A DNA stretch of 64,000 bases from Thermoanaerobaculia bacterium (GTDB lineage: Bacteria; Acidobacteriota; Thermoanaerobaculia; Gp7-AA8): contig DASWBH010000389.1 of NCBI GenBank assembly GCA_036390755.1, forward strand, positions 7,269 to 71,268, read 5' to 3'. The notes below the pieces were generated by a model, which saw only the letters and a program-made list of their open reading frames with translations, had not been told where the DNA came from and made no database searches. Positions within the stretch are counted from its first letter, which is position 1, and each line of letters starts with the position of its first letter. Positions 2,736 through 43,690 of this stretch are shown here, piece by piece. Made by a program: the position numbers and the translations under genes.

Positions 2736-3909
2736 GGCCGACGACCACACGGTTGCGTCCGAGACGCTTGGCTTCGTAGAGACGTTCGTCGGCGGTATGG
2801 AACAGCACGTCGGCGAGCTCGCCGTCGTCGGGGAAGATCGCCGCACCGATGCTGATCGTGACCTGCGTTCCGTCGGCCGCTGCGGGAAGCCCGGCGACGT
2901 TCGCGCGAATGCGTTCGGCGACGCGCGCGAGCGCTTCCGCGTCGGCGAGCGGGACGATCACCGCGAACTCCTCGCCGCCGTAACGCGCCGGGAAGTCGAC
3001 CGCGCGCACCGTCTCGCGGATCACCTGCGCGACGCGCTGAAGCGCCGCGTTCCCGGCGAGGTGCCCGAAGCGGTCGTTGTACATCTTGAATCGATCGAGA
3101 TCGAGGATGAGGACGCCGAAGCGCTCGGCGTATCGCATGGCGCGGGCGATCTCGACATCGCTCCGTTCGCGAAATGCCCGGAAGTTCGGGAGTCCGGTGA
3201 GGTCGTCGGTCCGGGCGCGTGCGTTGAGCTCGTCGGCCATGTGGTTGAAGGCAACGCCAAGCTTCGCGACGTCGAGGTCACCGCCCACCGGCGCACGCGC
3301 GGTCACGTCTCCGGCGGCGATCCTGTCCGCGGCTTCAGCAAGCTTCTCGATCGGACGGACCACGCGGTGGTGCGTGAGCGTGGCCAGCGCAAAGCTGAGG
3401 ATGACGATGATCCAGGCGACGCCGATGCCGGTCAGCATCATGCCGTTCGCGTCGTGCTCGAGGGTCGGGAGTTGCCGGGCGATCACGCTCTTGTGCGCCT
3501 CGATGAGGCGCTGAGCCTCGACCACGATGCGAACCGACTCGGCGTTGAGCTCGCCCTGCGGCGCGCGCGTAAGCAGCAGCATGCGATACGCGCGGACCCG
3601 CACGCGCAGGGCCGAAGTGTCGATGGATTGGACGGCGCGGGAGTCGAGGAGTTGCTCGACGGCGTCATAGCGGTCGACGGCGCTGGCGTCAGTTCCCTGC
3701 AGCTTTCCGCGAAATGCGTTCTGAGCGCGAATGAGCTCGTCGAGACGCCCGATCGCTTCGGTCTCGACCGAGATCAGGCGCGACCACCGCTCCTGCGACT
3801 GCCTGGCCCGCCAGCTCAGACCGAACGTGATCAGAAGGAGAGCGCACGCGAATGCGGCCGTCAGCCACGTCACCCGCGTTCGCAACCGGATCCTGGACAC
3901 TTGAAACAA
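2701..3909 (-). CDS. Membrane-anchored diguanylate cyclase (GGDEF domain)
   Basis: N-terminal TM helices and a C-terminal GGDEF domain with RYGGEEF and DRFKMYNDRFGHLAGN. Confidence 0.85.
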   Translation of the reverse strand: MFQVSRIRLRTRVTWLTAAFACALLLITFGLSWRARQSQERWSRLISVETEAIGRLDELIRAQNAFRGKLQGTDASAVDRYDAVEQLLDSRAVQSIDTSALRVRVRAYRMLLLTRAPQGELNAESVRIVVEAQRLIEAHKSVIARQLPTLEHDANGMMLTGIGVAWIIVILSFALATLTHHRVVRPIEKLAEAADRIAAGDVTARAPVGGDLDVAKLGVAFNHMADELNARARTDDLTGLPNFRAFRERSDVEIARAMRYAERFGVLILDLDRFKMYNDRFGHLAGNAALQRVAQVIRETVRAVDFPARYGGEEFAVIVPLADAEALARVAERIRANVAGLPAAADGTQVTISIGAAIFPDDGELADVLFHTADERLYEAKRLGRNRVVVGPIVPRAAQSGG

Positions 3910-5177
3910 GGATAATCCGCCGCGTGATCGATTTGGAATCGATCTACCTGCAGGCGCTCGGGCAGTGCTCGCCCGAAAGACTGATCGCAGTGCGCAGAGC
4001 GCGGAGCGCAGGCTTCAAGACGGTCGTTGCCATCGGCAAGTGCGCCGGGCGGCTGGTGGACGGCCTCGGCGACTTCGAGCGAGCGTTTGTGGCGATTCCG
4101 AAGGGGTATCCGCCACCCGTCATTCTGAGCGCCGAAGAGCGCGAAGAATCTGGGCGGGGGCAAGCGAGCCACCACCCGGATTCTTCGCCGTCTTCGCGGC
4201 TCAGGATGACACGCGGCGGCCACCCCGACATCGACGACGACAGCTTTCGCGCAGGCGACCAGCTCCTTCGTTTCATCGATGAAAGCGACGATGTTCTCTT
4301 CCTCATCTCCGGTGGTGGCTCGGCATGCGTCGAGGTTCCGCTCGATCCTTTCACGCGCGACGAGATCGTCACGACGAACCGGCAGCTCGTCGCATCCGCG
4401 CTGCCGATCGGCGACATCAACATCGTGCGGAAGCATCTCTCCGCCATCAAAGGAGGCCGCCTCGCCGCGCGCGTACGCGGACGCTCGCTGACGCTCGTCT
4501 ACTCCGATGTGTCGACCGGCGCGATCGGCGACGTCGCGTCCGGCCCGACCGTCGCCGACTCATCCACCAACGAGCACGCCGCGCAGCTCCTCGAACGGAT
4601 CGGCGGTTCCGCGCGCGTCGTCGAAAAACTTCGCGATCCGAAGTTGCCTGAGACGATCCGCGACGTCGCGAGCTCGCGTGCGGAGATCATCGCGGACAAC
4701 ATGACGCTGACCGCCACCGCGGCGCGTCTCGTCCGCGGCGCCGGATTCGAGCCGGTCCTCTGGCCGGATCAGATCGAGACACCGGTCGACGAGGCCGCGC
4801 AGTTTCTTGCGGATCGCTGCAGGTCGCTTCGGCGACGCGAAGTGCTCGTCGCCGGGGGCGAGCCGACCGTCGCGCGGCGCGGCAGCGGACGGGGCGGCCG
4901 CTGTTGTGAGCTCGCCGTCCGTTTCGCGCTGGGCAGTGACAATCCTGCACTTTTCGGCAGCTCCGACGGCCTCGACGGAAGCAGCGGCATCGCCGGCGTC
5001 GTCGTTCATGGCGGGGCGGGGCGGATCGCCGGCACACTTCGCAAACTTCTCGACACCTCTGATTCACTCGAGGCCGCGCACTTGATCGGGCGAGCCGTTA
5101 TCATTCCCCCGACGGGGAACAATCTCCGCGATCTCTTTCTCGTAGCGGCAGATAACGGCGTAATGGCTCAACCTTAG
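3852..5177 (+). CDS. Glycerate 2-kinase (MOFRL family) carrying an in-frame palindromic-repeat insertion
   Basis: Motifs VVAIGKCAGR, GGHP, VLFLISGGGSACVEVP and the MOFRL C-terminus are present. A loop insertion VILSAEEREESGRGQASHHPDSSPSSRLRMT is encoded by the repeat at 4119-4210. The start is uncertain: the first 58 nt overlap the GGDEF gene, and an alternative GTG lies near 3925. Confidence 0.75.
   Translation: MRPSATSPAFATGSWTLETRIIRRVIDLESIYLQALGQCSPERLIAVRRARSAGFKTVVAIGKCAGRLVDGLGDFERAFVAIPKGYPPPVILSAEEREESGRGQASHHPDSSPSSRLRMTRGGHPDIDDDSFRAGDQLLRFIDESDDVLFLISGGGSACVEVPLDPFTRDEIVTTNRQLVASALPIGDINIVRKHLSAIKGGRLAARVRGRSLTLVYSDVSTGAIGDVASGPTVADSSTNEHAAQLLERIGGSARVVEKLRDPKLPETIRDVASSRAEIIADNMTLTATAARLVRGAGFEPVLWPDQIETPVDEAAQFLADRCRSLRRREVLVAGGEPTVARRGSGRGGRCCELAVRFALGSDNPALFGSSDGLDGSSGIAGVVVHGGAGRIAGTLRKLLDTSDSLEAAHLIGRAVIIPPTGNNLRDLFLVAADNGVMAQP
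4119..4210. repeat. Imperfect palindromic repeat of about 92 bp, family 1 copy 1, in-frame inside the glycerate kinase CDS
   Basis: gtcattctgagcgccgaagagcgcgaagaatctggg ... cccggattcttcgccgtcttcgcggctcaggatgac. The two arms are reverse complements of each other. It is about 90 percent identical to the copy at 30223-30310. Confidence 0.8.
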
Positions 5178-15900: not shown

Positions 15901-16027
15901 TCGTCTTGCTCGTGGCACCTCGGCGACACTCTCAAGAAGGCAGGAATGGAGCGAGCAATCCGGGCGACGGATGACTCGATCGTGCCGCCCGCCTCCCAGA
16001 TCCCTCGCTCACGCTCGGGATGACAGA

Positions 16028-27739: not shown

Positions 27740-28674
27740 TGTACCGCGGTGCTTTGCGGGACGACCGGCGCCTTCTGTCGCGTGCAGGCCTGCAGATACC
27801 GGCCGGGCAGCGGATGGTCGAGGAACGGCGCGATGACCTGCGACGCGGCGACGAGCTTCTTTAAATCGACGCCCGTTTCGATCGCCATCCCGTCCAGCAG
27901 GTAAATCAGATCCTCGGTCGCCATGTTGCCGGAGGCACCCGGTGCATACGGACAACCTCCGAGTCCGCCGGACGACGCGTCGAACGTGGCGATGCCCATT
28001 TCGAGTGCGGCGAGCGTGTTCGCCAGCGCGGTGCCGCGCGTGTCGTGGAAGTGCATGGCCAGCTTCGTTCGCGGAATGACCTGCAGCAGGACGCCGATGA
28101 CACCCTGCACCTGCATCGGCGTTCCGACGCCGATTGTGTCGCCGACCGAGACCTCGTAGCAGCCGAGGTCCAGGAGGCGCGCGGAGACTTCGAGGACTTT
28201 CTCCGGCGGGACGTCCCCTTCGTAGGGGCAGCCGAATGCCGTGGAGACGTAGCCGCGGACGCGCATCCCGTGCTCGAGCGCGCGCATCGCGACGGGAGCG
28301 TAGTTGTCGAACGACTCGTCGATCGACATGTTGATGTTCCGTTTGTTGAACGTCTCGGATGCCGCGGTGAAGATCGCGATCGACTGCACGCCCGCTTCGA
28401 TGGCGCGGTCGAGTCCTCTCATGTTCGGCACGAGCACCGGATACTCGACGCCGGGATCTTTCGGGATGTTGCGATACACGTCCCCGGTGTCGGCCATCTG
28501 CGGCACCCACTTCGGACTGACGAACGCACCCGCTTCGATGACGCGCAGCCCGGCGTCGCTGAGGGCGGTGATGTAGTCGATCTTCGTCTGCGTCGGAATG
28601 GTGACCTTCTCGTTCTGAAGGCCGTCGCGCGGACCCACCTCTACGACTTTCACTTCGTCAACTTGGATCTTCAT
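27736..28674 (-). CDS. Hydroxymethylglutaryl-CoA lyase
   Basis: ..VKVVEVGPRDGLQNEK.. with the full HMGL-like TIM barrel and ..HFHDTRGTALANTLAALEMG.. Confidence 0.9.
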   Translation of the reverse strand: MKIQVDEVKVVEVGPRDGLQNEKVTIPTQTKIDYITALSDAGLRVIEAGAFVSPKWVPQMADTGDVYRNIPKDPGVEYPVLVPNMRGLDRAIEAGVQSIAIFTAASETFNKRNINMSIDESFDNYAPVAMRALEHGMRVRGYVSTAFGCPYEGDVPPEKVLEVSARLLDLGCYEVSVGDTIGVGTPMQVQGVIGVLLQVIPRTKLAMHFHDTRGTALANTLAALEMGIATFDASSGGLGGCPYAPGASGNMATEDLIYLLDGMAIETGVDLKKLVAASQVIAPFLDHPLPGRYLQACTRQKAPVVPQSTAVQ

Positions 28675-29159
28675 TGCCTTCCATCGTTAACCGTTAACGA
28701 AACAAGTTCCACGCCCGGCTGCACCATTTCTCCTTCCGTGCAGTTCACAGATTCCACCACCCCATCGTACGGCGCCACGATCTGGTGCTCCATCTTCATC
28801 GCCTCGAGCACAACAAGCGCCGCGTTCTTCTTTACAACGTCGCCCGCCTTCACGAGTATTTTCAGCACCACGCCGGGCATCGGCGCGGCGGTCGAGTGGT
28901 CGCGGTGGTGCGTGTGCGCGCGCGAGCCCTTGTCGGAGACATCGGCCGTGTAGATCTCGCCGTCGAACGCAAAGCTGACCGTCGTCCCACGTACGACGAA
29001 CGGCACGACGTAGGACTTCCCGGCGGCGCGGATCTCCGCCTCGCTGCCCTTCGTGGCGACGAGCTCGATTTCGGCGTCGCCGCTTCGAAAGACACGGCCC
29101 TGGTGATCGACGGCGAGCTCGGTCTGCTTGCCGCCGATCGTGACGATCTTGTCGCTCAT
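28671..29159 (-). CDS. Biotin-requiring (biotinyl/lipoyl attachment) domain protein, BCCP-like
   Basis: C-terminal ..VLEAMKMEHQIVAPYDGVVESV.. contains the EAMKM biotinylation motif. The N-terminal roughly 90 aa are unassigned. Confidence 0.65.
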   Translation of the reverse strand: MSDKIVTIGGKQTELAVDHQGRVFRSGDAEIELVATKGSEAEIRAAGKSYVVPFVVRGTTVSFAFDGEIYTADVSDKGSRAHTHHRDHSTAAPMPGVVLKILVKAGDVVKKNAALVVLEAMKMEHQIVAPYDGVVESVNCTEGEMVQPGVELVSLTVNDGRQ

Positions 29160-29734
29160 CGCGCTCCCGAGTAACGGCTGCCGGGCGAATCGATTCCGAC
29201 GCCCGACGCGCAGAGCGGGCAATTCTGTTCCGCGTGCGTCTCGAGATCGAGCGAGAGGAGCGATTCGTAGGGAGCATCGAACGGCTTCGATTTTCCGCTG
29301 CGATTGAGAATCGACGCGAAGCCGACGACAACGCCGCCGTGCTCCGCGACCACGCGCGCCGCTTCGCGCGTCGACCTGCCGGTCGTCACCACGTCCTCGA
29401 CGATGACCACGCGCTCGCCCGGTTTGATTCTGAAGCCGCGGCGCAGCGTCATCTCGCCCTCTTTCCGTTCCGTGAACATCATCGGCACGCCGAGCGCCTC
29501 CGCCACGGTGTAGCCGATGATGAGGCCTCCCATCGCCGGCGCGACGATCTTCTGCGCGCGCATGGGTCGTACTTTCGCGGCCAGTGCCTCGCCGAGCGCC
29601 TTTGCGTTCCGCGGGTCCTGCAGGAGCAGCGCGCACTGCACGTAGCTCGGACTGTGCAATCCCGATGAGAGGCGGAAATGACCCTGAAGAAGCGCGCCCG
29701 TTTCGTGAAGAAGTGCGAGCACGTCGAGAGGCAT
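29156..29734 (-). CDS. pyrE: Orotate phosphoribosyltransferase
   Basis: ..LLQGHFRLSSGLHSPSYVQC.. and the PRPP motif VVIVEDVVTTGRS. Confidence 0.85.
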   Translation of the reverse strand: MPLDVLALLHETGALLQGHFRLSSGLHSPSYVQCALLLQDPRNAKALGEALAAKVRPMRAQKIVAPAMGGLIIGYTVAEALGVPMMFTERKEGEMTLRRGFRIKPGERVVIVEDVVTTGRSTREAARVVAEHGGVVVGFASILNRSGKSKPFDAPYESLLSLDLETHAEQNCPLCASGVGIDSPGSRYSGAR

Positions 29735-29774
29735 GGGCCGCGAGAATAGAATGGCGTCCGGAGAGAAGCAACCG

Positions 29775-30221
29775 ATGCCGAAGTTGACGGAACAGATCCG
29801 CGCCGACCTCACTGAGTCGATGAAAGCGCGGACGGCCGTGCGCACCTCGACGCTGCGCATGTTGCAGTCGGCGATGAAGTACCAGCAGATCGAGGCCGGT
29901 CACGAGCTGTCGGATGAAGAGGTGCTCGCCGTCATCCGCAAAGCGGTGAAGCAGCGCCTCGACTCGATCGAGCAATACACGAAAGGCAACCGTCCCGAGC
30001 TCGCGGCGAAAGAGCAATCGGAGCTCGATCTGTTGAAGACGTATCTGCCGGCCGAGTTGACCGACGCGGAGCTCGAGTCGGGACTGCGCGACATCATCTC
30101 CTCGACCGGCGCGCAATCGAAAAAGGACCTTGGCAAAGTGATGAAGGAAGCGACGGCAAAGTACAAAGGGCGCGCGGACGGGAAGAAGATTCAGGAGATT
30201 GTGAGCAGACTGCTGACATAG
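29775..30221 (+). CDS. GatB/YqeY domain protein
   Basis: MPKLTEQIRADLTESMKARTAVRTSTLRMLQSAMKY.. A GGAGAGAAG SD lies 6 nt upstream of the start. Confidence 0.85.
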   Translation: MPKLTEQIRADLTESMKARTAVRTSTLRMLQSAMKYQQIEAGHELSDEEVLAVIRKAVKQRLDSIEQYTKGNRPELAAKEQSELDLLKTYLPAELTDAELESGLRDIISSTGAQSKKDLGKVMKEATAKYKGRADGKKIQEIVSRLLT

Positions 30222-30222
30222 T

Positions 30223-30310
30223 GTCATTCTGAGCGCCGTAGAGCGCGAAGAATCTGGGCGGTGGATTGCCACCTCCCAGATTCTTCGCCGTCTTCGCGGC
30301 TCAGAATGAC
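30223..30310. repeat. Imperfect palindromic repeat of about 88 bp, family 1 copy 2, filling the yqeY-moeB spacer and contributing the moeB ATG
   Basis: gtcattctgagcgccgtagagcgcgaagaatctggg...cccagattcttcgccgtcttcgcggctcagaATGac. It begins 1 nt after the yqeY TAG stop. Confidence 0.8.
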
Positions 30311-31424
30311 TCTCACCGACCACGAACGCACTCGCTACTCGCGCCACTTGCTCCTTCCCGAGATCGGCGAAGAAGGACAGGAGAAGCTCAAGCGCGCCTC
30401 AGCGCTCATCGTCGGCGTCGGAGGCCTCGGCAGTCCGGTGGCGATGTACCTGACCGCCGCCGGCGTCGGCAGGCTCGGTCTCGTCGACTTCGATACCGTC
30501 GATGAGACGAATCTGCAGCGCCAGATCCTGTTCGGCGAATCGGCCGTCGGCGAGCGCAAGCTCGACGCGGCCTGGAAGCGCCTGCGCGACATGAACCGCA
30601 ACCTGCGCATCGAGACGTTCAACGACCGACTCACATCGCGCAACGCCATGCCGCTGATGGAGCCATACGACATCATCCTCGACGGCACCGACAACTTCGC
30701 GACGCGGTATCTCGTGAACGACGCCTGCGTCATGCTGGGCAAGCCGAATGTTTACGCGTCGATTTATCGATTTGAAGGACAGGTATCGGTCTTCGATGCG
30801 ACGAAGGGACCCTGCTATCGCTGCCTGTATCCTGATCCGCCGCCGCCGAATCTCGTCCCTTCCTGCGCGGAGGGCGGAGTTCTCGGCGTGCTGCCGGGAG
30901 TCGTCGGCTGCTTACAGGCGACCGAAGCGATCAAGATGATCACCGGAGCGGGAGAACCGCTGATCGGAAGGATGCTGCTCTTCGACGCGCTGCGCATGAG
31001 CTTCCGCTCGCTGCGCGTGCCCAAGAATCCGAATTGCAAAGTGTGCGGACCGGATCCCGAGATCCGGCAACTGATCGACTATGAGGAGTACTGCGGACCC
31101 TTGAACAACATGGAAATTACGGCGCGGGAACTGGCCGATCGCATCGCGCGCGGGGAGCGGCTGTTCCTTCTCGACGTGCGCGAGCCGATCGAGTGGGACG
31201 CCGGCCATCTCGAACACGCGACGCATATCCCGCTGCAGCAGGTGCCGCGCAGTCTGGACTCGCTGCCGCACGACACCGAGATCGTCGTCTACTGCCGGAG
31301 CGGCGGACGGAGCGGCCGCGCCCAGCAGTACATGCTCAGCAACGGCTTCAAGAGCGTGAAGAATCTCGCCGGCGGACTTATCGCCTGGGCGCGCGAAGTC
31401 GATCCTTCGGTGAAGGTTCGCTAG
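30306..31424 (+). CDS. moeB: Molybdopterin/thiamine-biosynthesis adenylyltransferase with C-terminal rhodanese domain (MoeZ/MoeB-like)
   Basis: ..RYSRHLLLPEIGEEGQEKLKRASALIVGVGGLGSP.. ThiF/MoeB fold with CxxC pairs, and a C-terminal rhodanese (..VVYCRSGGRSGRA..). The ATG lies inside the repeat arm. A longer GTG-initiated ORF from 30261 also reads through the repeat. Confidence 0.85.
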   Translation: MTLTDHERTRYSRHLLLPEIGEEGQEKLKRASALIVGVGGLGSPVAMYLTAAGVGRLGLVDFDTVDETNLQRQILFGESAVGERKLDAAWKRLRDMNRNLRIETFNDRLTSRNAMPLMEPYDIILDGTDNFATRYLVNDACVMLGKPNVYASIYRFEGQVSVFDATKGPCYRCLYPDPPPPNLVPSCAEGGVLGVLPGVVGCLQATEAIKMITGAGEPLIGRMLLFDALRMSFRSLRVPKNPNCKVCGPDPEIRQLIDYEEYCGPLNNMEITARELADRIARGERLFLLDVREPIEWDAGHLEHATHIPLQQVPRSLDSLPHDTEIVVYCRSGGRSGRAQQYMLSNGFKSVKNLAGGLIAWAREVDPSVKVR

Positions 31425-35956: not shown

Positions 35957-38206
<2,250 letters not shown>

Positions 38207-42769: not shown

Positions 42770-43690
42770 CTATGAACGGCGGTCGCAGATAAAACGCGCG
42801 ATGTCCGCCAGATAGTTCACAGGGCCGGCGATCATATCAGCGTTCTCTACGGCCGTCCGGAGGAGGGCCGCGACCTCGGCCCGTGCCGCTTCCGCACCAA
42901 CGACGGCCGGATACGTCAGCTTCCCCTGCGCCGCGTCCTTCCCGGCAGTCTTGCCGAGCGTGGCGGAGGACTGCTCCCGATCGAGGAGATCGTCGACGAT
43001 CTGGAAGGCGAGACCGAGCGAGCTGCCGTAGTGGGCGAGGCGTACGAGCTGGTCATCGCTGCCCCCGCCGAGGATCCCGCCGAGCAGGACGGACGCGGTG
43101 ATGAGCTTGCCGGTCTTGTTGCGGTGGATGAACCGGACGCGCCGCAGTCCTCCCTCTCCCGCGTACGGGAGAGGGTGGCGCGAAGCGCCGAGTGAGGGCG
43201 TTTCCTCCAGATCCGCGACCTGCCCACCGATCATCCCGGTCGAGTCGACCGCCTGAGCGATGGTCGTGATCGCGCGCAGCTGCCGCTCCGCGGGGATGCC
43301 CGCAACCGGCCGCGCAAGCCACGAGAACGCCTCGGTCAGCAGCGCATCGCCCGTGAGGATGCCGATCGCCTCGCCGTAGACCACGTGCGTCGTCTTGCGC
43401 CCGCGGCGGAGATCGTCGTTGTCGAGCGCCGGCAGGTCGTCATGGACGAGCGAGTACGTGTGGATCAGCTCGAGCGCGGCGAACGGAACGAGCAGCGGCT
43501 GCACGGCGGCGCCAACCGACTCGGCCGCCGCAATCGCGAGGATCGGCCGGATCCTCTTGCCGCCGCCGAGGACGGCGTAACGCATCGCCTCGTGAATGAC
43601 GGCAGGCTCGGTGTCCGGCTCTGGCAGGTTCCCGGTCAGCGTCTGTTCGACCAGCGCGCGACGATCCTGGAGAAAGGATTCGAGTCGCAT
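42770..43690 (-). CDS. ispA: Farnesyl/geranyl diphosphate synthase, with an in-frame family-2 repeat insertion
   Basis: LIHTYSLVHDDLP and FQIVDDLLD. The repeat at 43145-43198 inserts ..TPSLGASRHPLPYAGEGG.. between the DLEE and IHRNKTG motifs. Confidence 0.9.
   Translation of the reverse strand: MRLESFLQDRRALVEQTLTGNLPEPDTEPAVIHEAMRYAVLGGGKRIRPILAIAAAESVGAAVQPLLVPFAALELIHTYSLVHDDLPALDNDDLRRGRKTTHVVYGEAIGILTGDALLTEAFSWLARPVAGIPAERQLRAITTIAQAVDSTGMIGGQVADLEETPSLGASRHPLPYAGEGGLRRVRFIHRNKTGKLITASVLLGGILGGGSDDQLVRLAHYGSSLGLAFQIVDDLLDREQSSATLGKTAGKDAAQGKLTYPAVVGAEAARAEVAALLRTAVENADMIAGPVNYLADIARFICDRRS
43145..43198. repeat. Short repeat with internal palindrome, family 2 copy B, in-frame inside ispA
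   Basis: cagtcctCCCTCTCCCGCGTACGGGAGAGGGtggcgcgaagcgccgagtgaggg. It is inverted relative to copy A, although both host genes are on the minus strand. Confidence 0.75.

Follow-up and report, generated by a model that had tools for sequence, protein, structure and literature searches.

A REP-type palindromic repeat between yqeY and moeB in a Thermoanaerobaculia bacterium and its donation of the moeB start codon

The yqeY and moeB genes are neighbors on the forward strand of a 64,000-nucleotide stretch of a Thermoanaerobaculia bacterium (Acidobacteriota; assembly GCA_036390755.1, contig DASWBH010000389.1, positions 7,269 to 71,268), referred to here in its full length as the window, and the spacer between them is occupied by a palindromic repeat. 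This element, GTCATTCTGAGC...GCTCAGAATGAC, is an imperfect palindrome of 88 bp spanning 30223-30310. It begins 1 nt past the yqeY stop codon (TAG, 30219-30221) and holds within its right arm, in its terminal motif GAATGAC, the ATG of moeB (30306-30308). The junction reads ...ctgctgacaTAGt GTCATTCTGAGCGCCGTAGAGCGCGAAGAATC TGGGCGGTGGATTGCCACCTCCCA GATTCTTCGCCGTCTTCGCGGCTCAGAATGAC tctcaccgac... An earlier sequence-only reading of this locus had given the same positions and reading frames for the stop codon, the element and the start codon, all of them correct. It had also proposed that the element fills the spacer and supplies the moeB start, and both proposals held when the 5' regions of moeB in related genomes were compared, as an insertion and a start replacement were seen.

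Ten orthologous MoeB loci were listed and the junction DNA of eight was read. The MoeB N-terminus was M-L-T-D/P in all eight (371 aa where full length), while the protein of the window begins M-T-L-T-D and has 372 aa. Alignment places an ACT of the window opposite the ATG or GTG of the relatives, and the new ATG stands 3 nt upstream within the family-conserved GAATGAC. The NCBI protein call for the source metagenome-assembled genome (MAG), P0001, was 100% identical with 372 aa and starts on this same ATG, and the Pfam and NCBIfam alignments to the moeB product begin at the residue matching it. The next in-frame start downstream is a TTG at codon 15, the use of which would delete the conserved RYSRH segment. 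Because M-L-T-D of the relatives corresponds to M-T-L-T-D in the window, these comparisons indicate that the element supplies both the moeB ATG and the Thr codon at position 2 (ACT), replacing the ancestral start.

A start further upstream, at GTG 30261, would turn the right arm into a 15-aa N-terminal extension of MoeB (MDCHLPDSSPSSRLR-MT...). The frame is open, no part of the hairpin is more accessible than the apical region, and a glycerate-kinase-like protein tolerates the same peptide frame; as had been pointed out from the sequence, an open reading frame (ORF) from this GTG does read the right arm as PDSSPSSRLRMT, in the frame used by the glycerate-kinase-like ORF at 3852-5177. However, the homologues are 371 aa and none has the 15 extra residues, the family models align from the ATG and NCBI uses the ATG. 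The GTG is also located in a 5-bp apical stem rather than a loop, with no Shine-Dalgarno (SD) sequence before it. Translation from GTG 30261 is therefore very unlikely, and it does not displace ATG 30306 as the better-supported start.

Orthologous loci were gathered through contigs encoding homologues and through one metagenome scan, and 13 of them keep yqeY directly before moeB (Table 1). Most MoeB loci from the metagenome scan were 53-60% identical, no longer had yqeY upstream, and were set aside as too distant. The conserved order in the relatives is pyrE in reverse, yqeY and moeB forward, then CAP and HATPase in reverse. Misassembly at the repeat was considered and found unlikely, since the order in the window (4HBT, HMGL, biotin-lipoyl, pyrE, yqeY, moeB, CAP, HATPase) is that of the relatives. 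The spacers of the closest relatives overlap or abut, and the closest of all (L130) has no spacer whatsoever. On this comparison the ancestral junction is a stop/start overlap, and the element of the window is specific to its own lineage.

The other relatives showed that this junction has received more than one kind of sequence. Inserts of 43-90 nt were observed in 7 of the 13 loci, with four of the seven being long hairpins. The palindromes of L001, L002 and L127 open with GGGGTCAGGTC or GGGGTCAGATC, and the hairpin of L127 ends flush with the ATG. Their sequences fit the GGGGWSAS motif, which is found in inverted repeats flanking tyrosine-transposase (TIRYT) genes, Acidobacteria included (PMC3733652). 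Five or more kinds of repeat, the element of the window among them, have thus colonized the same junction independently of one another, and it attracts, or at least tolerates, non-palindromic repeats also (L126, L129).

Table 1. Positions of the features in the window and yqeY-moeB spacers in the window and related loci
Feature or locus	Position or spacer	Strand	Description
yqeY, GatB/YqeY-domain protein, 148 aa	29775..30221	+	Pfam YqeY E = 1.6e-48; relatives 148 aa
moeB/moeZ-type adenylyltransferase-sulfurtransferase, ThiF + rhodanese, 372 aa	30306..31424	+	Pfam and NCBIfam
Left arm, REP-like unit	30223..30254	+	(T)GTC-ATTCT-GA-GCGC-CGTAGA-GCGC-GA-AGAAT-C; matches pan-bacterial arm motif
Apical spacer TGGGCGGTGGATTGCCACCTCCCA	30255..30278		24 nt, self-complementary, holds GTG 30261 (alternative start)
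Right arm, REP-like unit on opposite strand	30279..30310	-	(A)GTC-ATTCT-GA-GCCG-CGAAGA-CGGC-GA-AGAAT-C; + strand end ...GCTCAGAATGAC
Second full copy	4119..4210		In frame inside glycerate-kinase-like gene 3852-5177
Degenerate third copy	15940..16024 (about)		Right arm on - strand, GTCATCCCGAGCGTGAGCGAGGGATC; left arm decayed
Junction, window	84 nt		88-bp element
Junction, L130 (89% MoeB identity, closest)	-4 nt		TGATG overlap
Junction, L005 and L006	-1 nt		TAATG overlap
Junction, L128	0 nt		TAGATG
Junction, P0051 locus	1 nt		From gene coordinates
Junction, L004	13 nt		Short spacer
Junction, L003	43 nt		Small GC hairpin
Junction, L129	48 nt		Tandem AGCAACC-like units
Junction, L126	52 nt (1446-1497)		Tandem CTCCAAT x5 after inverted copy
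Junction, L001 (145-216), L002 (2925-2998) and L127 (1015-1113)	82-90 nt		Long palindromes, unrelated family starting GGGGTCAG

An inverted-repeat search of the window returned two arms of 45 nt each at 30220-30264 and 30269-30313, which are 84% complementary and separated by a 4-nt loop. As RNA, the element was predicted to fold into a hairpin of -66.4 kcal/mol, compared with -31.7 +/- 3.6 kcal/mol in 200 dinucleotide shuffles (z = -9.7), none of which reached the energy of the element. The predicted stem is made up of 12 + 14 + 5 base pairs and interrupted by small internal loops, and the moeB AUG is fully paired in the minimum-free-energy structure. The claim of a palindromic repeat with a second copy is borne out by these arms, by the predicted fold and by the copy at 4119-4210.

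Each arm also folds by itself. In the left arm, a stem of 5 bp leads into a 2x2 GA/GA internal loop, and a further stem of 4 bp closes a 6-nt loop (-6.3 kcal/mol as DNA); the right arm takes the same fold (-6.1 kcal/mol as DNA). The inner stems differ between the arms, with GCGC/GCGC on the left and GCCG/CGGC on the right, and each is self-consistent. Two 32-nt units thus face each other in inverted orientation with their tags outward and a 24-nt self-complementary spacer between them, which makes the element a head-head dimer. Between genomes the apical region is variable and the arms are conserved. A Pfam scan of the element-encoded peptides matched no family. The reading that best suits its sequence is that the 88-bp element is a mobile, non-coding palindrome of the repetitive extragenic palindromic (REP) type, forming a REPIN-like head-head dimer.

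The arm was found to be far more widespread than the element. A scan of a 596-Gb genome collection with GTCATYCTGAGC-N6-14-GCGAAGRATC (22 specified bases) returned at least 119 stretches (loci L007-L125), against a chance expectation of about 2 by our arithmetic. The counts that follow refer to the matches listed. The motif was present in MAGs and genomes of more than 15 phyla, including Acidobacteriota, Chloroflexota, Planctomycetota, Verrucomicrobiota, Firmicutes, Bacteroidota, Fibrobacterota, Cyanobacteria, Omnitrophota and Proteobacteria. The conserved unit is the arm and not the whole palindrome, with the sequence between arms not being shared, and each arm is an imperfect hairpin of the form YGTC-ATYCT-GA-(GC-rich stem/loop)-GA-AGRAT. 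Y and R covaried in 103 of 105 unique arms (53 T/A, 50 C/G, 2 mismatched). The inner segments of 6-14 nt formed a mean of 1.34 pairs, against 0.51 +/- 0.07 in shuffles. Some dimers, L034 and L077 among them, pair a T/A arm with a C/G arm, which places the constraint within the arm and not between arms.

Of 130 arms, 121 had T or C directly before GTCAT (89 and 32, respectively), 5 had A and 4 had G, and after AGRAT the arms run C followed by TCG, TCA, TCC, CCG or TGG, the window having C-TGG. The 119 loci contained 58 head-head, 17 tail-tail and 10 tandem dimers along with 65 single units, and both full copies in the window are head-head. Between distant arm pairs (about 1 kb) in other genomes, inspection by eye for a cargo gene found only ordinary ORFs, such as a DeoD-like phosphorylase, rplE/L5 and membrane proteins, and no transposase. 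No cargo-bearing copy was present among the 119 loci, and there was no sign of an autonomous element.

Rfam returned 0 matches in the whole window at the gathering threshold and has no entry for the arm motif. At E <= 10 within 30150-30400, nothing matched the element apart from microRNA-precursor models, which are generic hairpins and scored below threshold. A literature search with the terminal 12-mers gave primer and chance matches only, and no paper naming the arm motif by sequence was found. A hammerhead core or a K-turn, suggested by CUGA...GAA beside GUC, was rejected by inspection: the NGA of CUGANGA is missing, and there are neither three stems nor a 3-nt bulge.

In one Thermoanaerobaculia MAG (SMAG_U15922), head-head dimers were observed in tandem arrays with a period of 146-152 bp and a shared flank, gtcgttgttcac... 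These BIME-like clusters lie in L048 (about 1560-2034), L069 (6750-7151) and L088 (5972-6448).

Among described repeats, the element most resembles the CGTC/TGTC-tagged REPs of Di Nocera, De Gregorio and Rocco (2013; BMC Genomics 14:522, PMC3733652), a group that includes the dRS3 repeats of Neisseria and RPE-4 and RPE-6 of Rickettsia. These have a tetranucleotide tag (CGTC, or TGTC or CCTC) and a stem starting with A-T, occur mostly as head-head dimers without an associated transposase, and have some copies in ORFs. The arms in the window carry the tags CGTC (4118), TGTC (4211, reverse strand), TGTC (30222) and AGTC (30311, reverse strand), and the outer stem ATYCT/AGRAT begins A-T, T-A in every arm matched. 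The units matching the arm motif, among the matches listed, share the predominance of head-head dimers. The window element likewise occurs near ORFs, sometimes inside them and translated in frame, and no transposase is known to be flanked by it. Donation of TAG stop codons by REP termini and the translation of REPs within ORFs have also been described (PMC3733652).

Several features differ from that group. CGTC-1 to -4 have an uninterrupted stem of 8-9 bp and a 4-5-nt loop, whereas the arms in the window have 5 bp, a GA/GA internal loop, 4 bp and a 6-nt loop, and in the arm family in general the 5 bp are followed by a tandem GA/GA internal loop and then by 2-6 bp, with loops of 3-8 nt. The tail of the CGTC REPs is mostly CCA and that of the arms here is C-TC/TG. 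Five phyla were reported for the CGTC REPs, and the arm motif is spread more widely (Acidobacteriota, Chloroflexota, Planctomycetota, Firmicutes, Cyanobacteria and others). Finally, REPs that donate stop codons are reported for that group, while the window element donates a start codon. Because of the bulged and longer stem, the other loop sizes and the non-CCA tail, the element is best read as a variant of the CGTC/TGTC-tagged group, to which its sequence is closest, and not as a strict member of CGTC-1 to -4.

Other systems share some of these properties. REPINs, which RAYT transposases mobilize (Bertels and Rainey 2011), also consist of two inverted REPs with a short spacer, form one long hairpin of about 90-110 nt that behaves as a single unit, and are present or absent at orthologous sites. 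Their head is GTAG, in contrast to YGTC here, and each REPIN family belongs to one lineage and is inherited together with a single-copy RAYT gene (an IS200-like Y1 transposase), whereas the arm motif spans many phyla. In the REP2 repeats of Neisseria and the IR repeats of Borrelia, the end of a dispersed repeat is fused to a downstream ORF and gives it its ATG (Delihas 2011, PMC3184786), a donation shared by the window element. REP2 is a portable expression signal that supplies a promoter and a ribosome-binding site as well; the window element brings neither, and its ATG is hidden in the hairpin. Mycobacterial MIRUs (Supply et al. 1997) are likewise intergenic repeats, located in a polycistronic operon and overlapping at their ends with the stop and start codons on either side, with filled or empty orthologous sites. 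In MIRUs, however, a small ORF bridges stop and start and preserves coupling, and the units are direct tandem repeats, while the window element is a palindrome and the only ORF overlapping the yqeY TAG is GTG-TCA-TTC-TGA (30221-30232).

Each ingredient of the case is therefore precedented, from REP dimers or REPINs in operon spacers and stop donation to ATG-carrying repeats and MIRUs. What is new is the combination, in which a YGTC-type REP dimer in Acidobacteriota has replaced a start codon at a former stop/start overlap. Also new are the repeated colonization of one junction by unrelated repeat families and the very broad phylogenetic spread of the arm motif. With matches listed from more than 15 phyla, YGTC-ATYCT-GA-hairpin-GA-AGRAT extends the CGTC-type REP superfamily.

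The signals that could govern expression of moeB were scanned around the junction. No terminator-like sites were found in 29500-30600 (0 by scan), and no U tract follows the stem, which continues into UCUCACCGAC. Because the U tract is lacking, the element is, judged by its sequence, not an intrinsic terminator. The sequence-only reading had suggested a hairpin terminator or attenuator between yqeY and moeB, and the hairpin is indeed very stable, GC-rich and placed directly after a stop codon. Yet the absence of a U tract (...GAAUGACUCUCACCGAC) and of terminator-like sites speaks against this, as does the fact that the 3' half of the stem is itself coding. With no forward-strand promoter-like site separating the hairpin from moeB, termination would also leave a conserved and intact gene silent. 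We consider termination here extremely unlikely.

The scan found no forward-strand promoter-like site in the element or spacer, and the only upstream one (29724-29752) lies before yqeY. No SD sequence was found before moeB in the window (anti-SD duplex -1.7 kcal/mol) or in any relative (no better than -3.3 kcal/mol), which fits an ancestral dependence of moeB on stop/start-overlap coupling. The element had also been proposed as the translation-initiation region of moeB. This stands insofar as the element provides the AUG, but it brings no SD (-1.7 against -6.6 kcal/mol for yqeY) and the AUG is sequestered. Any regulatory role of the element at the junction is putative.

The observations above show what happened to the DNA. 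The element inserted into the ancestral yqeY-moeB stop/start overlap in this lineage only, the original moeB start was lost, and the outward ATG in its terminal GAATGAC took over, adding one Thr codon. It was probably not selected for function and may be a selfish insertion that survived since a usable start was preserved. As the element has no forward-strand promoter, SD or U tract, moeB would still be transcribed together with yqeY. The moeB AUG would then be locked at the base of the -66 kcal/mol hairpin, whose first base pair is predicted to lie within 1-2 nt of the yqeY stop, so that a ribosome terminating on yqeY must melt the outer pairs. Melting of about 12 bp would free the AUG, and the remaining helix would hold it beside the ribosome. 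When the mRNA under the terminating ribosome was forced single-stranded to +9, +12 or +15 nt, the AUG bases were predicted to be unpaired with P = 0.5-1.0, and an inner hairpin of -50 to -55 kcal/mol persisted.

In reporter experiments, termination-reinitiation collapses once the spacer exceeds about 20 nt (PMC10666635), and a linear 84-nt spacer would thus otherwise break the coupling. Translation of moeB may instead stay coupled to yqeY by unmasking, with or without re-initiation, as a side effect of the insertion. We favor, with moderate confidence, insertion of a REP-type repeat with start replacement, followed by coupling of moeB to yqeY through unmasking, as the best explanation of the junction.

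The hairpin may go further and act as a structural bridge that lets the yqeY ribosome re-initiate on moeB across the 84 nt, a bacterial counterpart of ribosome shunting; this we hold to be unlikely. In classical operon coupling by unmasking of a structured start site, and in ribosome shunting across a hairpin base, as in the cauliflower mosaic virus (CaMV) 35S leader, the end of an upstream ORF and the start of the next one mark the two feet of a stable hairpin, and that start is reached only when the upstream ORF is translated. CaMV-type shunting is eukaryotic and the bacterial precedents for unmasking have no inserted repeat, and any likeness to the junction in the window would be one of mechanism only. 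If a bridge did form, it would explain why TGATG/TAATG overlaps were repeatedly colonized by long palindromes of unrelated families (YGTC-type in the window, GGGGTCAG-type in L001, L002 and L127), and REP-type dimers could more generally enter operon junctions with tight coupling while leaving stoichiometric expression intact.

The long, near-perfect stem also raises the main rival to coupling, in which it is a processing site for RNase III or another endonuclease that separates the yqeY and moeB messages and uncouples the genes. After cleavage, the yqeY message would retain a 3' stem that protects it, and the leader acquired by moeB would be short, unstructured and without an SD. A stem of 12 + 14 + 5 bp with small internal loops is within the substrate range, and transcribed Correia elements of Neisseria are cleaved at their inverted repeats (PMC10969869). 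Sister lineages tolerate inserts other than long hairpins, which suggests that uncoupled expression of moeB is viable. On the other side, RNase III offers no sequence motif usable for prediction, and the cleaved moeB leader would still have no SD. Processing of this kind seems improbable to us, if less so than the other alternatives to coupling.

Alternatively, the insertion may be deleterious or neutral, with the hairpin blocking moeB translation almost fully and the gene being poorly expressed or redundant, in which case there would be no mechanism to ascribe to the element. The AUG is fully paired in the predicted structure, there is no SD, and REP-type repeats are generally viewed as selfish (PMC3733652); an intact ORF alone is no proof of expression. 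Against this, moeB is full length, has all conserved motifs present and scores 457 bits against the MoeB equivalog model, over its cut-off. A new in-frame ATG one codon from the ancestral position would also be an unlikely coincidence without selection for expression. We therefore regard near-silencing of moeB as quite unlikely.

A number of points weigh against insertion followed by unmasking. The nearest empty site is only 89% identical (protein), and at this divergence the insertion breakpoints are not reconstructable. The element misses some of the defining features of the CGTC family, namely the stem and loop lengths and the CCA tail. No transposase was found in the source genome, of which the 64-kb window was available. 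Co-transcription, formation of the hairpin in vivo and coupling are all steps that we infer. In addition, L126 and L129 carry tandem repeats and L003 only a small hairpin, so that their 43-52-nt inserts are not long hairpins. These three inserts indicate that tight coupling is not indispensable for moeB and that the hairpin geometry may be irrelevant. Any palindrome in a spacer of zero length would place the stop and start codons at its base, and the geometry is therefore no evidence of selection.

Direct repeats of the kind left by a MITE (miniature inverted-repeat transposable element) were also sought, and no target-site duplication was seen at cccacccG...Cacgcgg (copy at 4119-4210) or catagtG...Ctctcac (copy at 30223-30310).

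Donation of a start codon does not appear to be a property of the repeat family. Among the matches listed, 13 of 131 arms had an outward ATG that began an ORF of 100 codons or more, and most of these ORFs resemble spurious antisense ORFs by composition. The only other likely case was L055, with a transpeptidase-domain ORF, and a TPR ORF in L075 was ambiguous. With only one or two other candidates among the arms listed, we rejected start donation as a family property and treat it as an accident.

The junction nevertheless offers a documented before-and-after case, in which empty and filled orthologous sites show a REP-type repeat rewriting a gene start. An ancestral stop/start overlap of 4 nt or 1 nt became an 84-nt hairpin spacer, with the gene now beginning on the ATG of the repeat. 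For annotation, this implies that mobile elements may be the source of start codons and N-terminal residues in uncultured lineages rich in repeats. For operon biology, coupling collapses past about 20 nt in experiments, yet 7 of the 13 loci carry inserts of 43-90 nt. We view the case as a clear but fairly ordinary example of repeats reshaping operons.

Two further copies of the element were observed in the window (Table 1). The copies at 4119-4210 and 30223-30310 share the terminal 12-mers and the inner GCGAAGAATCTGGG blocks, and their right halves are 86% identical over 56 nt. The glycerate-kinase-like ORF (3852-5177; DUF4147 + MOFRL) translates its copy just upstream of the conserved GGHPD motif. 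The 20 aa derived from the left arm and loop of this copy (PVILSAEEREESGRGQASHH) are missing in homologues, yet several of these (P0123, P0125, P0129) retain a right-arm-like PDPSPSPRLRMT at the equivalent place. In another homologue, P0133, this loop holds a repeat-like insert of a different kind. The in-frame copy recalls the RPE repeats, and insertion seems to have a second hot spot here. In the right arm of the degenerate third copy, the outer stem ATCCC/GGGAT replaces ATTCT/AGAAT, a compensated double change. This copy appears to lie at the ends of two convergent genes.

The longest yqeY ORF begins at 29733 (162 aa). The ATG at 29775 is preceded by a GGAGA SD (anti-SD duplex -6.6 kcal/mol), and the promoter-like site at 29724-29752 lies just upstream of it; ATG 29775 is probably the true start. 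The last YqeY residue is Thr in the window and Pro in most relatives. We also observed that yqeY and moeB share one reading frame (29733-31424), with the 84-nt spacer free of in-frame stops after the TAG, and read-through of this TAG would yield a YqeY-28 aa-MoeB fusion.

On the reverse strand, a sigma-70-like match (ATGACA, 18-nt spacer, CACAAT) at 30227..30198 has its -35 at the left end of the element and is directed back into yqeY in the antisense sense of reading, probably by chance. An Arg/His-rich ORF of 558 aa (28671-30347, reverse strand) runs antisense across yqeY and the element and looks like a high-GC artefact, not a gene.

An unrelated repeat family was also present in the window, as a 57-nt inverted pair at 36204-36260 and 43145-43201 that is 95% complementary and has the core CCCTCTCCCGCGCGCGGGAGAGGG. 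A small hairpin that is very similar, CCCTCTCCCGCGCGCGGGGAGAAGG, fills the yqeY-moeB spacer of the relative L003.

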